DNA of 64,000 bases from an uncultured Christensenella sp. (GCA_910579585.1 CAJTVA010000004.1:2330-66329), one strand, 5' to 3'. Numbered from the stretch's first letter, positions 14,572-34,937 are shown. Made by a program: numbers and translations. The notes: generated by a model from the sequence alone, not told the origin.

Positions 14572-14600
14572 AAAAGGTGCGATATTTTATCGCACCTTTT
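14572..14600. terminator. Bidirectional terminator closing the radical SAM gene (+) and the 20-kb protease/Opp cluster (-)
   Basis: AAAAGGTGCGAT-atttt-ATCGCACCTTTT, a 12-bp stem with A and T runs on both sides. It overlaps the stop codon at 14600-14602. Confidence 0.85.
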
Positions 14601-14851
14601 TATTTCAGCCAGAAATATGCAAGCAAAAAGACAAACGAAAACATAAGCACGGAAATAATGATAAACGGAGCAATCGCCGCAAACGCGCCCCTTACCATAG
14701 CCCAATACTCTTTTCTTGAAACTTTTTGCCTGTTTTTGCGCGACTCGTCCTGCTTTTTTGCGTTGGGGTTATACCATTTAAAACCGTCAACGTTCATATC
14801 GGCGAAACTTGTCGTCGTATCAAGGTCGTCGTCAGGCTTTTTCTTTGCCAT
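14600..14851 (-). CDS. Small tail-anchored membrane protein (83 aa), last gene of the Opp cluster
   Basis: A charged N-terminal half (KKKPDDDLD...KKQDESRKNRQKVSRKEYW) is followed by a single C-terminal TM segment (GAFAAIAPFIIISVLMFSFVFLLAYFW). The start overlaps the oppF 3' end by 20 nt, and the terminator follows immediately. Confidence 0.6.
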   Translation of the reverse strand: MAKKKPDDDLDTTTSFADMNVDGFKWYNPNAKKQDESRKNRQKVSRKEYWAMVRGAFAAIAPFIIISVLMFSFVFLLAYFWLK

Positions 14852-15956
14852 CGCTCTCCTCTTTGTTCTTCTTTTTGAGCACCCTCATATCTTCCTTTGC
14901 AAGCGCTGTAATTCTTTCAAGTTCTTCGGCTTTCTTCAACTCTTCTTTGCAAGCAATATTCTCCTCGGGCGTGTTGTAAAGGTGACAGGCACAGAAATGC
15001 CCTTTTTCTACCTCTTTATAAATAGGTTTTACCTTTTCGCAAATATCCATGCAGTGCTCGCACCGAGTGTGGAACTTGCAGCCCTTGGGCGGGTTAACGG
15101 GCGACGGCAAGTCGCCCTTCAACAGAATTCTGTTCATCTTGACGTGCGGGTTAGGCACGGGCACCGCCGAGAAAAGCGCCTTTGTGTACGGGTGCAGAGT
15201 GTTTGAGAAAATCGACTCCTTAGTGCCGTACTCAACCATACTGCCGAGGTACATTACGCCGACTTCGTCCGAAATGTGCTTAACGACGGACAAATCGTGC
15301 GAAATGAACACGTACGTCAGGCCCAACTCTTTCTGCAATTCTTTAAGCATATTAATTATCTGCGCCTGAATGGAAACGTCAAGCGCGGAAACAGGCTCGT
15401 CGCATATAACGAGGTCGGGCTTTAACGCAAGCGCGCGGGCAATACAAATTCTTTGCCGCTGACCGCCCGAAAACTCATGCGGGTAACGCTCGTAATAGTG
15501 CGGCTGAAGTCCGCACATCTTCATAACGCTTAAAATGTAATCGTGATACTCTTCCTTGGGCACGATTTTGTGCTCGCGCACAGCCTCGCCGATAATCTCG
15601 CCGACGGTAAGTCTTGGCGAAAGGCTCGCGTAAGGGTCCTGGAAAATCATTTGCATATTCGGGCGGAGTTTGTTGAACTCGCGGTTCTTTATCTTTGAAA
15701 CTTCCTGCCCCTTGAACCAGATTTCCCCGCCCGTAACGTCGTAAAGACGCAGAACGGTTCTTCCCATAGTCGTCTTACCGCAACCGCTTTCGCCGACTAT
15801 ACCGAGGGTCTTGCCCTTTTCGATAGAGAACGTAACGCCGTCAACGGCTTTCAGATACTTGGTGGGTCTGCCGAAAAGCGTAGAGTCCACCACGAAATAC
15901 TGTTTTAAATCTTTAACTTCTAAAAGAGGTGCTTCGCTTACTTCGTTTTCAGCCAT
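14832..15956 (-). CDS. oppF: Oligopeptide ABC transporter ATP-binding protein OppF-type, with a C-terminal Cys cluster and a charged tail
   Basis: Walker A GESGCGKTT, signature FSGGQRQR, Walker B LVICDEPVSALD, H-loop ISHDL. The C-terminus has CKFHTRCEHCMDIC...CAC followed by about 45 aa of KE-rich tail. Confidence 0.9.
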   Translation of the reverse strand: MAENEVSEAPLLEVKDLKQYFVVDSTLFGRPTKYLKAVDGVTFSIEKGKTLGIVGESGCGKTTMGRTVLRLYDVTGGEIWFKGQEVSKIKNREFNKLRPNMQMIFQDPYASLSPRLTVGEIIGEAVREHKIVPKEEYHDYILSVMKMCGLQPHYYERYPHEFSGGQRQRICIARALALKPDLVICDEPVSALDVSIQAQIINMLKELQKELGLTYVFISHDLSVVKHISDEVGVMYLGSMVEYGTKESIFSNTLHPYTKALFSAVPVPNPHVKMNRILLKGDLPSPVNPPKGCKFHTRCEHCMDICEKVKPIYKEVEKGHFCACHLYNTPEENIACKEELKKAEELERITALAKEDMRVLKKKNKEESDGKEKA

Positions 15957-15957
15957 A

Positions 15958-17259
15958 TTAAACCTCCTTTCCGTTTTCTTTTGATTTATAAAGATAGCAC
16001 AAAACGCTGTGTGTAGGCGATACCTTTATAAGCTCGGGGTATTCCCCCGCGCACTCCGAACGGCAGGACTCGCACCTGTCGCGGAAGTAGCAATAGTCGG
16101 GCATATCAACAGGGTTGGGCACGAAACCGGGAATACAGTAAAGCGATTCGACTTCACCGTCAACGGTCGGTTTACTCTTCTGCAAGCCAATCGTGTACGG
16201 GTGCATAGGATGGTCGAAAATATCCTCCGCCGTGCCCATTTCTATTACTTTGCCAGCATACATAACGACAACGAAGTCCGCCATTTCCGCAACCACGCCC
16301 AAGTCGTGCGTGATAAGCATAATACTGCCGTTAATCTTCTGTTTGATTTCCTTTAATAAATCGAGAATCTGCGCCTGAATGGTAACGTCGAGCGCTGTAG
16401 TCGGCTCGTCAGCAATAATAAGGCGCGGGTTGCAAAGAAGCGCCATTGCAATCATAACCCTTTGGCGCATACCGCCCGATAGCTCGTGCGGGTATTTCTT
16501 ATAAACTCCCTCGGGGTCGGCCATACCGACAAGATTAAGCATTTCAAGACTTCTGGCTTTAGCGTTTTCCTTAGATATACCCTCAAGATGCAAAAGCGCA
16601 ACCTCGTCAAGCTGGTTTCCGACCGTGAACACGGGGTTAAGGGAAGTCATAGGCTCCTGAAAAATCATTGCGATTTCACTACCGCGGATTGTACGCATAG
16701 CATCGACTGGCATCTTTGCAATGTCAACAACGAGCTCTTCCCTCTCGTACATATTTCCGCCGAGCTCGTTTTTCTTTATAACGGGCTTGCCTTTTTTGTC
16801 GAGAACGGGCTCTTCGCCGTTCACACCCGTGCGGGTTTCGTAAACGGGAATTTTCCTCCCCTTTTCGTCACGCTTAAAGCTATGGCTTTTGAACCTTATA
16901 GAGCCGCTTACAATCTGCCCCGCGGGTCCTTGAACAAGTTGCATAGTCGAAAGCGAAGTTACGGACTTACCGCAACCGCTCTCGCCCACGACGCCGACCG
17001 TCGAGCCTTCGGGAATGGAGAACGACACTCCGTTTACCGCCTTAACGACGCCCGCGTCGGTGAAAAAAAAGGTGTGCAAATCGTCGAGTTCAAGAATGTT
17101 GGTCGGGTCCTTCATTTCCGTTACGAACTCTTCTTCCTTTATCTTTCTCTTCTTGCGTTTTTCGAAGTATTTCGTCTGCTTAGCGTTTTCCTTAGCTATG
17201 CGGCGGGACTCCGCGCCCGAGATATAATGCGATTTTTTTGAATTATTTTCTTCGGACAT
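15958..17259 (-). CDS. oppD: Oligopeptide ABC transporter ATP-binding protein OppD-type, with an N-terminal basic extension and an internal insertion
   Basis: Walker [11 protein letters not shown]-loop [14 protein letters not shown], signature LSGGMRQR, Walker [14 protein letters not shown]-loop ITHDL. There is a lysine-rich leader of about 52 aa, and an insertion of about 54 aa (aa 124-177) between Walker A and the Q-loop. Confidence 0.9.
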
Positions 17260-34773: not shown

Positions 34774-34800
34774 TTTAAAACCTCAAAAAAGCACGCAAAA

Positions 34801-34821
34801 GAAAAGTGTACGCCACTTTTC
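34801..34821 (-). promoter_or_regulatory. Terminator-like hairpin in the leader of the protease/Opp cluster
   Basis: The minus-strand RNA is GAAAAGUG-gcgua-CACUUUUC followed by UUUUGCGUGCUUUUUU. The SD (34781-34784) and the ATG (34773) come next. Confidence 0.45.
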
Positions 34822-34908
34822 CCCACATTGATATTGACGCAGACTTTACTGTAAATTTCTTTACGCAACATTAGCTTGCGCAAATCGTCCGCAAATTGAT
34901 ACATAACA

Positions 34909-34937
34909 ATTATACAAATTAATATTTGAAAACGCAA
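34909..34937 (-). promoter_or_regulatory. Sigma-A-type promoter of the protease/Opp cluster
   Basis: Minus strand TTGCGT (34937-34932), a 17-nt spacer, then TATAAT (34914-34909). It sits inside a 430-bp AT-rich intergenic region. The predicted leader is about 130 nt. Confidence 0.55.

Follow-up and report, generated by a model that had tools for sequence, protein, structure and literature searches.

The DNA considered here is a stretch of 64,000 nt from an uncultured Christensenella sp. (GCA_910579585.1 CAJTVA010000004.1:2330-66329), referred to below as the window, with positions counted from its first letter. Calling of open reading frames (ORFs) placed nine co-directional ORFs, each with an ATG start, on the minus strand from 34773 to 14600. 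In gene order they encode a giant lipoprotein (O1), a surface protease of the S8 family (O2), a second lipoprotein (O3), an importer of the Opp type consisting of a solute-binding protein (SBP, O4), two permeases (O5 and O6) and two ATPases (O7 and O8), and a small membrane protein (O9). The operon formed by these genes is well supported, and from the encoded proteins we infer a function in which extracellular proteins would be cleaved at the cell surface and the released oligopeptides imported.

The ORFs are closely packed, with distances from O1 to O9 of +47, -4 (ATGA), -1 (TAATG), +27, +11, +4, +1 and -20 nt, where negative values are overlaps. Shine-Dalgarno sequences (GAGG or GGAGG) lie 5-10 nt before eight of the nine starts, the exception being O5 with a weaker GGAG about 15 nt away. 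An earlier description, made from the DNA alone (hereafter the sequence-only reading), had reported nine head-to-tail ORFs at these positions, and its junctions, including the ATGA and TAATG overlaps, proved to be exact. The two terminators that it had placed at the borders were also recovered. The block is closed by a strong intrinsic terminator (14572..14600, minus strand) with a 12-13 bp stem, a 3-nt loop and a T-run (-17.9 kcal/mol, z-score -6.7), and upstream it is bordered by the intrinsic terminator that ends the operon before it, which encodes an FAD-dependent oxidoreductase (35088..35117, minus strand; -23.5 kcal/mol, z-score -6.65). Before O1, a candidate sigma-A promoter of the block (34909..34937, minus strand) consists of TTGCGT (34937-34932), a 17-nt spacer and TATAAT (34914-34909). 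It had been announced as a good promoter; the sequence is indeed present with a perfect -10 element, the -35 element matches at only 3/6 positions (TTG only), and the site is plausible, not outstanding. The consensus scan did not return it, because with such a -35 element it falls under the scan threshold. Within the block no strong terminator-like site was detected and weak ones numbered 19 versus 25.6 expected from shuffled sequences, while promoter-like sites were somewhat above expectation (33 versus 23.8 +/- 4.3).

As to regulation, a search with Rfam revealed neither a riboswitch nor a T-box in the leader of O1, the sole match in the window being RNase P, located elsewhere. CodY-box-like sequences were seen at 30804-30818, in the gap between O1 and O2, and at 34843-34857, in the O1 leader, with 2 and 3 mismatches, respectively. 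Regulation through CodY boxes was rejected, since the number of such matches over the whole window was not significantly above chance (nine versus 5.5 +/- 2.3 expected).

To follow the block in relatives, one genome per GTDB species was scanned, which returned at least 572 stretches encoding an SBP relative. The best 80 loci, with SBP identity to that of the window from 100% down to 39%, were analysed; all but one of them come from records labelled as metagenome-assembled genome (MAG) or uncultured isolate, and nearly all are MAGs. Locus counts given here have as denominators the loci with sufficient flanking sequence. OppBCDF followed O4 in 58/58 loci and O9 followed OppF in 53/58; O3 preceded O4 in 70 of 74 loci, the four misses still showing a gap of the right size. 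O2 lay directly upstream of O3 in 49 of the 61 loci, an association that also survives relocation of O1 (see below), so that the joint occurrence of protease and importer genes expected by the sequence-only reading was confirmed. The same gene order recurs where the SBP is just 39-60% identical, which likewise bears out the expected conservation of the block. The close overlaps of O2 with O3 and of O8 with O9 are also found in gene calls from relatives, in which the O3/O4 junction varies from an overlap of 1-4 nt to a gap of up to 57 nt.

The remaining 12 of 61 species, many of them labelled Ca. Scatosoma, have no adjacent protease, and unrelated smaller genes precede O3. In one of these loci (L037), Pfam annotation identified a complete his operon (hisZ through hisIE) before O3-O9, separated from O3 by about 200 nt; in most of the protease-less loci L019, L021, L056, L058, L062 and L084, sizes of the upstream genes fit a his operon too. 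The importer therefore does not depend on O2 in cis. By these comparisons the conserved core is an Opp/App-type importer with three lineage-specific additions, namely the helical insertion in O4, O3 and O9, and a front end of O2 and O1 appears to be attached to it in most species and to be optional in some clades. The proposal of a self-contained unit running from protease to importer is weakened accordingly, the unit that is conserved being O3-O9.

O2 (23375..30799, minus strand) is a protease of 2474 amino acids (aa) of the cell-envelope proteinase type, with a signal peptide, an S8 catalytic domain with PA insert, Fn3_5, a long stalk, a BspA-type leucine-rich repeat (LRR) region and a C-terminal transmembrane (TM) anchor. 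Pfam assigned Peptidase_S8 to residues 219-726 (E 3.5e-41), PA to 525-601 inside S8, fn3_5 to 760-886, and seven copies of LRR_5. The catalytic triad is intact and in subtilase order, D228 (VIDTGLD), H303 (HGTHV) and S664 (GTSMA), with N425 (AASN) as the oxyanion residue, and the serine motif is kept in 51/51 O2 homologues. Residues 201-907 matched the structures of C5a peptidase, SpyCEP and cell-envelope proteinase (7edd, 5xya, 1xf1) with E from 3e-70 to 1e-54. Triad, PA insert and Fn3-like domain are those of the cell-envelope proteinase / C5a-peptidase group of subtilases (MEROPS S8A), to which O2 can be assigned by sequence, and the giant extracellular S8 protease announced earlier is thus upheld; across species, proteases of this type have 2,400-2,900 residues. 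The NCBIfam family of LPXTG-anchored peptidases scored 279 bits on O2 versus a cut-off of 1400. At the C-terminus neither an LPXTG nor an S-layer-type anchor was found; O2 ends with GGCGGGCGS, a TM helix (2444-2467) and RRKNRGIR, and most of the 51 homologues also end with a TM helix and a basic tail.

Two further observations concern O2. The Gly/Cys motif GGCGGGCGS, located just before the TM helix and the RRKNRG tail (window 23375-23560), is conserved in the homologues of loci L001, L003, L010, L013, L014 and L038, and it may serve as a signal, so far unrecognised, for sorting, acylation or processing. Antisense to O2, on the plus strand at 28571-30424, there is an ORF of 617 aa with a TTG start, an Arg-rich translation and no sign of coding, which is most likely a shadow ORF.

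The importer is complete, as the sequence-only reading had it, the whole Opp/Dpp set being identified by both Pfam and NCBIfam. The permeases are O5 (OppB-type; 18340..19338, minus strand), with BPD_transp_1 and the best NCBIfam match to Opp4B (E 1e-65), and O6 (OppC-type; 17264..18328, minus strand), with OppC_N and BPD_transp_1 and a match to Opp4C (E 8e-100). The ATPases, O7 (OppD-type, 433 aa; 15958..17259, minus strand) and O8 (OppF-type; 14832..15956, minus strand; OppF/DppF, E 1e-125), both carry ABC_tran and oligo_HPY. O7 has an insertion of about 60-70 residues in the region from Walker A to the Q-loop: ABC_tran covers residues 76-288 versus a profile of 137 positions, and the OppD match is split in two stretches. 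Its length is conserved in relatives (431-438 aa). Together with the cluster-C SBP O4, these proteins have the full predicted composition of an Opp/Dpp/App system (PepT, TC 3.A.1.5), i.e. one SBP, two BPD_transp_1 permeases and two oligo_HPY ATPases, and in NCBIfam the components score best against Opp/App/Dpp families. A Mollicutes-type Opp was considered and rejected: the syn1.0 Opp families score under staphylococcal-type Opp3/Opp4 and enterobacterial models and therefore indicate no special relationship to Mollicutes. It should be added that the oligo_HPY tails of O7 and O8 contain Cys-rich motifs, e.g. CKFHTRCEHCMDIC...CAC (window 14832-17259). Fe-S clusters are reported for some OppD/OppF proteins, and the motifs are reminiscent of these.

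O4 (19366..21963, minus strand) is a lipoprotein of 865 aa from SBP cluster C (SBP_bac_5), enlarged by an insertion of some 330 residues, most of it helical; Pfam matched SBP_bac_5 over residues 473-761 only. The family profile matched AppA of Bacillus subtilis with E 8e-15, over query residues 112-151 and 483-763 on either side of the insertion. In the AlphaFold2 model (predicted local distance difference test, pLDDT, 82.4) the protein is a cluster-C SBP fold with a mostly helical inserted domain. A Foldseek search with this model returned AppA (1xoc) as the best match (E 4e-21, target-normalised TM-score 0.78), closely followed by NikZ, NikA, CtaP, OppA and DppA; the SBP fold was assigned with probability 1.00 and target-normalised TM-scores of 0.78-0.83. 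All NCBIfam equivalog scores were far under their cut-offs (e.g. Opp4A, 50 bits versus 650). Homologues of O4 number more than 2500, all from uncultured Clostridia. The earlier claim of a peptide-binding protein is therefore retained in part: sequence and fold both point first to AppA, which binds nonapeptides, the nickel binders NikZ and NikA are about equal, and the peptide specificity that we propose for O4 is a prediction from sequence comparison and modelling.

O3 (21963..23378, minus strand) is a 471-aa lipoprotein with the lipobox LAAGC. It has no match in Pfam or NCBIfam, Glug included. Its AlphaFold2 model (pLDDT 85.8) is all-beta, with InlB-B-repeat-like domains and a small GLUG-type beta-helix cap; against the PDB it gave no global fold match at E < 1e-3 and a local match to the InlB B-repeat with probability 0.92. 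With no PDB match at that threshold, no identity as an enzyme or chaperone could be assigned.

The relationship of O3 to its neighbours is better defined. In six independent assemblies, representing at least five species (loci L028, L031, L033, L043, L046 and L047), O2 and O3 form a single uninterrupted ORF, with the junction at about 8.5-8.7 kb of each locus; recurrence in independent assemblies marks it as a true Rosetta-stone fusion. The fused proteins consist of the O2 ectodomain, a TM helix, a short basic loop, a second TM helix and the O3 ectodomain, a topology that is consistent because both large domains would sit outside the cell. In the sister species L040 and L044, O3 is separate and an N-terminal signal anchor replaces the lipobox. 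Furthermore, the two genes overlap by 4 nt here and in several relatives, and by 8 nt in one, which points to translational coupling. The fusions reinforce, at the level of sequence, the link between protease and importer, and O3, being fused to the protease in some species and otherwise inseparable from the SBP, is the best candidate for a physical bridge between the two.

O1 (30847..34773, minus strand) is a 1308-aa lipoprotein with the lipobox FAFGC, an N-terminal GLUG-type beta-helix region and subsequent lipocalin-like (DUF5640-type) repeats. Pfam matched only Glug (E 2e-6), DUF5640 and Big_13; among 19 full-length orthologues Glug was present in 17, DUF5640 in 10 and Flg_new in 4. The profile of the orthologues matched PDB entry 3n6z, a GLUG domain of a 'putative IgA1 protease', with E 1e-10, and by its GLUG motif repeats, predicted to form a beta-helix, O1 belongs to GLUG-domain surface proteins. 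A hidden metalloprotease in O1 was ruled out, since it has no HExxH motif and neither O1 nor its orthologues match a peptidase family. In 18 loci the gene comes before O2, and in 13 it is found behind O9, full-length and on the same strand; of 41 loci allowing a judgement, 10 gave no BLASTP match to O1. That O1 stays with the operon even when relocated to its opposite end supports its functional link to the block.

The sequence-only reading had taken O1 and O3 for two paralogous GLUG lipoproteins and had drawn an analogy with the lipoprotein maturase PrtM of lactic acid bacteria. BLASTP between O1 and O3 gave nothing significant; what they have in common is a module of about 100 residues (O1 125-233 versus O3 281-376; hhalign probability 97.6%, E 3e-12), which by alignment is the cap preceding the GLUG repeats. 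Paralogy thus shrinks to this module, and O3, sharing only the cap with O1 and having no Glug match, is not classed as a GLUG protein. No rotamase, PrsA or SurA family was found in O1 or O3 at E <= 0.01, so that the PrtM analogy is abandoned. Otherwise the predicted domains (S8, PA, fn3_5, LRR_5, SBP_bac_5 and, in O1, Glug) were found by profile annotation, Flg_new being confined to the 4 O1 orthologues mentioned.

O9 (14600..14851, minus strand) is an 83-aa bitopic membrane protein overlapping oppF by 20 nt. LDTxTTFADMNVEGFxWYxP...RKEYWAMVRGAF is the conserved motif of its cytoplasmic part, which precedes the C-terminal TM helix; alignments contain 20 invariant columns. No Pfam family matched O9. 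A profile search of 1.84 billion representatives returned 278 relatives, nearly all of them stand-alone proteins of 65-150 aa, and O9 as a domain of larger proteins was accordingly dismissed; the sole 2371-aa protein returned matches in 23 short repeated stretches, which suggests an artefact of low complexity. The overlap with oppF, read as translational coupling, suggests that O9 is an accessory subunit of the transporter.

Is the block transcribed as a whole? Short junctions and border terminators speak for the single transcription unit of the sequence-only reading. A second candidate promoter is nested in O2 (25619..25648, minus strand), 2.2 kb before O3: TTGACA, an 18-nt spacer and TATAAT, matching the consensus at 12/12 positions. 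Across 8 orthologues the codons of its hexamers are kept at synonymous positions, TTG in 8/8, ACA in 7/8 and TAT in 8/8, against a background in which the identical codon is kept in just 14% of columns with an invariant amino acid; moreover, TTG and ACA are minor codons (17% of Leu and 11% of Thr codons, respectively). This conservation is suggestive, not proof, of a nested promoter for O3-O9, and the importer may therefore have its own transcript as well. We propose co-transcription that probably starts at the promoter before O1, with a possible second start within O2 serving O3-O9. Thus, of internal signals that could split protease from opp genes, a strong terminator was not found and a promoter-like site was, and the claim of one transcription unit is weakened: O3-O9 may also be served separately, and they form a unit of their own in the 12 protease-less species.

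Contig CAQTYU010000002.1 of 'Candidatus Borkfalkiaceae bacterium MGBC129175', a MAG from mouse gut, matches the window with 100% identity, and NCBI places the name Ca. Borkfalkiaceae in Christensenellaceae, Christensenellales. The neighbours of the block are housekeeping genes (pyruvate kinase, RNase P RNA, UvrAB, PNPase, RelA, RecJ, SecDF), guanine-plus-cytosine (GC) content is even over the window, and relatives have the same flanks (pyruvate kinase, TetR-ABC and M29 aminopeptidase), which together make this a core chromosomal locus. On the same grounds a mobile island was ruled out. By sequence comparison the operon is a vertically inherited, chromosomal one of uncultured gut Christensenellales of a Borkfalkiaceae-like lineage.

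Several features of the surroundings should be recorded as well. Between O9 and pyruvate kinase, at 13130-14558, there are an HxlR-family regulator (minus strand) and a radical-SAM gene (plus strand); pyruvate kinase directly follows O9 in loci L001, L003, L005 and L090, which indicates that this pair is a small lineage-specific insertion. RNase P RNA (11201-11553, minus strand; 247 bits) is of class A, which fits Clostridia and not Bacilli or Mollicutes. In the uvrB-pnp interval, an ORF of 458 aa (43597-44973, minus strand) has a uL15-type domain (PF00828, E 1e-9) in its last 70 residues only, judged from Pfam an unusual architecture and one encoded apart from the ribosomal operon.

The domains taken singly and the overall logic of the block are familiar. 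Lactic acid bacteria are known to supply Opp by means of a cell-envelope proteinase, with the parts found at separate loci, as the sequence-only reading had stated: in Lactococcus lactis SK11, prtP/prtM and oppABCDF are on different plasmids (PMC2827410). With that system (PrtP/lactocepin, PrtM, OppABCDF) the present one shares an S8 proteinase with PA insert and Fn3_5, a complete Opp importer with lipoprotein SBP, two permeases and two oligo_HPY ATPases, and the presumed logic of cleavage outside followed by oligopeptide import. It differs in having the genes in one conserved operon, no PrtM/PrsA-type maturase, a C-terminal TM helix instead of an LPXTG or S-layer-type protease anchor, a BspA-type LRR region in the protease, an SBP larger by about 330 residues and the extra conserved components O1, O3 and O9. 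The streptococcal C5a peptidases (ScpA/ScpB) and SpyCEP have the domain order of O2 (catalytic, PA, Fn3); they serve in virulence, carry LPXTG anchors, cleave a narrow set of host substrates and are not known to be linked to opp, whereas O2 is about 1,000 residues longer, carries LRR_5 repeats and is membrane-anchored.

Some resemblance also exists to the dentilisin operon of Treponema denticola (PrcB-PrcA-PrtP), in which an S8 protease is encoded with two accessory lipoproteins whose fold is unknown. However, O1 and O3 match no family of the dentilisin partners (the only Pfam matches being Glug, DUF5640 and Big_13, in O1 alone), the order and sizes of partner genes differ, and dentilisin is not known to be linked to Opp. 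AppA and the App permease of B. subtilis belong to the same ABC subfamily, and AppA is the best match of O4 in sequence and fold; with about 520 residues AppA is much shorter than O4 (865), which carries the helical insertion after the conserved FNLYVYLDP region, and identity in the structural alignment is only about 12%. Finally, the Sus-like polysaccharide and protein utilisation loci of Bacteroidota offer an analogy only, with surface binders, a surface hydrolase and an importer in one locus; in contrast, the nine proteins include no SusC/SusD-type match, the importer here is an ABC system and not TonB-dependent, and the envelope is presumably monoderm. The searchable literature contained no description of an equivalent system and the original Borkfalkia genome paper makes no mention of one, in agreement with the sequence-only reading, which had not recognised the gene set as a described system. 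What appears undescribed is the fixed linkage of protease and importer and the accessory proteins O1, O3 and O9.

We propose, with a probability of roughly 60%, that the operon serves the use of proteins, with O2 acting in proteolysis at the surface, O4 in capture and OppBCDF in import. O2, possibly partnered by O1 and O3 for binding or scaffolding, would bind and cleave extracellular proteins at the surface; O4 would capture the released oligopeptides and OppBCDF would import them, with O3 as adaptor and physical bridge from protease to importer, O1 in binding or scaffolding and O9 as transporter accessory. The roles proposed for O1 and O3 are guesses, because neither has a recognisable catalytic or chaperone fold, and this lack is itself one of several points that weigh against the proposal. 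The O4 model resembles nickel and other non-peptide binders nearly as well as AppA, and the O4 insertion of about 330 residues is without known counterpart; the BspA-type LRR and GLUG domains are adhesin-like; the protease is not adjacent in 12/61 species; and the conserved promoter-like site in O2 argues against strictly unitary transcription.

Some of these points would be accommodated if the block combined two functions side by side, with O1 and O2 as adhesins or host-interaction factors (cleaving, e.g., immunoglobulins or chemokines) and O3-O9 as a general peptide importer, their adjacency reflecting shared ancestry and envelope-related co-regulation without any hand-over of substrate. The closest solved relatives of O2 are the streptococcal C5a peptidase and SpyCEP, the GLUG region of O1 matches a domain of a 'putative IgA1 protease', and both the protease-less importer cores and the candidate separate promoter of O3-O9 speak for such a division. 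We nevertheless regard it as unlikely, giving it about one chance in five. Against it stand the O2-O3 fusions, which join the protease to a constant companion of the SBP, the linkage of O1 that is kept despite its relocation, and the start-stop overlaps of O2 and O3. The cargo could also be something other than peptides (e.g. metal-chelates, muropeptides or oligosaccharides), with the protease otherwise employed, for instance in envelope remodelling: NikZ, NikA, EppA and other non-peptide binders lie within about two orders of magnitude of AppA in Foldseek, weak NCBIfam matches also touch nickel families, and the large insertion in O4 leaves its binding site unpredictable. This is improbable given that AppA is the top match in both sequence and fold, that each component scores best against oligopeptide or dipeptide systems, that the conserved neighbour is an S8 protease, and that no glycoside hydrolase or metallophore gene was seen in the loci with neighbours annotated by gene calls or Pfam scan. 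S8 exoproteases and Opp are known to cooperate in RRNPP-type signalling, as with Phr/CSF of Bacillus, a signal that is processed by S8 proteases before its uptake through Opp, and by that general knowledge O2 might mature secreted pro-peptides that Opp re-imports as quorum signals; such a role is very improbable, as neither the block nor the relatives inspected contain an RRNPP-type regulator or a small pro-peptide gene, and O2, both in size and in its PA/Fn3_5/LRR architecture, is of the bulk cell-envelope proteinase type.

Proteolysis coupled to peptide import thus remains the preferred reading, and a bolder, rather doubtful extension of it may be formulated, in which a membrane-tethered supercomplex of protease and importer would channel substrate, O3 docking O2 (and O1) on SBP/Opp and O9 acting as a small ABC-importer subunit of a kind not known before. 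If true, monoderm bacteria would possess an equivalent of the Sus-like utilisation machines that is based on ABC transport and dedicated to protein, and it would define the nutrition of an uncultured gut lineage that is both large and prevalent.

Guts of humans and animals widely harbour Borkfalkiaceae-like Christensenellales, a group whose physiology has hardly been described. The advance made so far is one of comparative genomics only. It brings to light three uncharacterised conserved partners of Opp, namely O3, which in some species is one protein with the protease, the SBP insertion (about 330 residues) and O9, and these are leads on how monoderm bacteria may organise extracellular hydrolysis and uptake. 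Possession of a conserved locus in which surface protease and peptide importer are coupled would identify the Borkfalkiaceae-like lineage as foragers of proteins and peptides, which bears on their auxotrophies, on their culturing and on the turnover of host protein or mucus.

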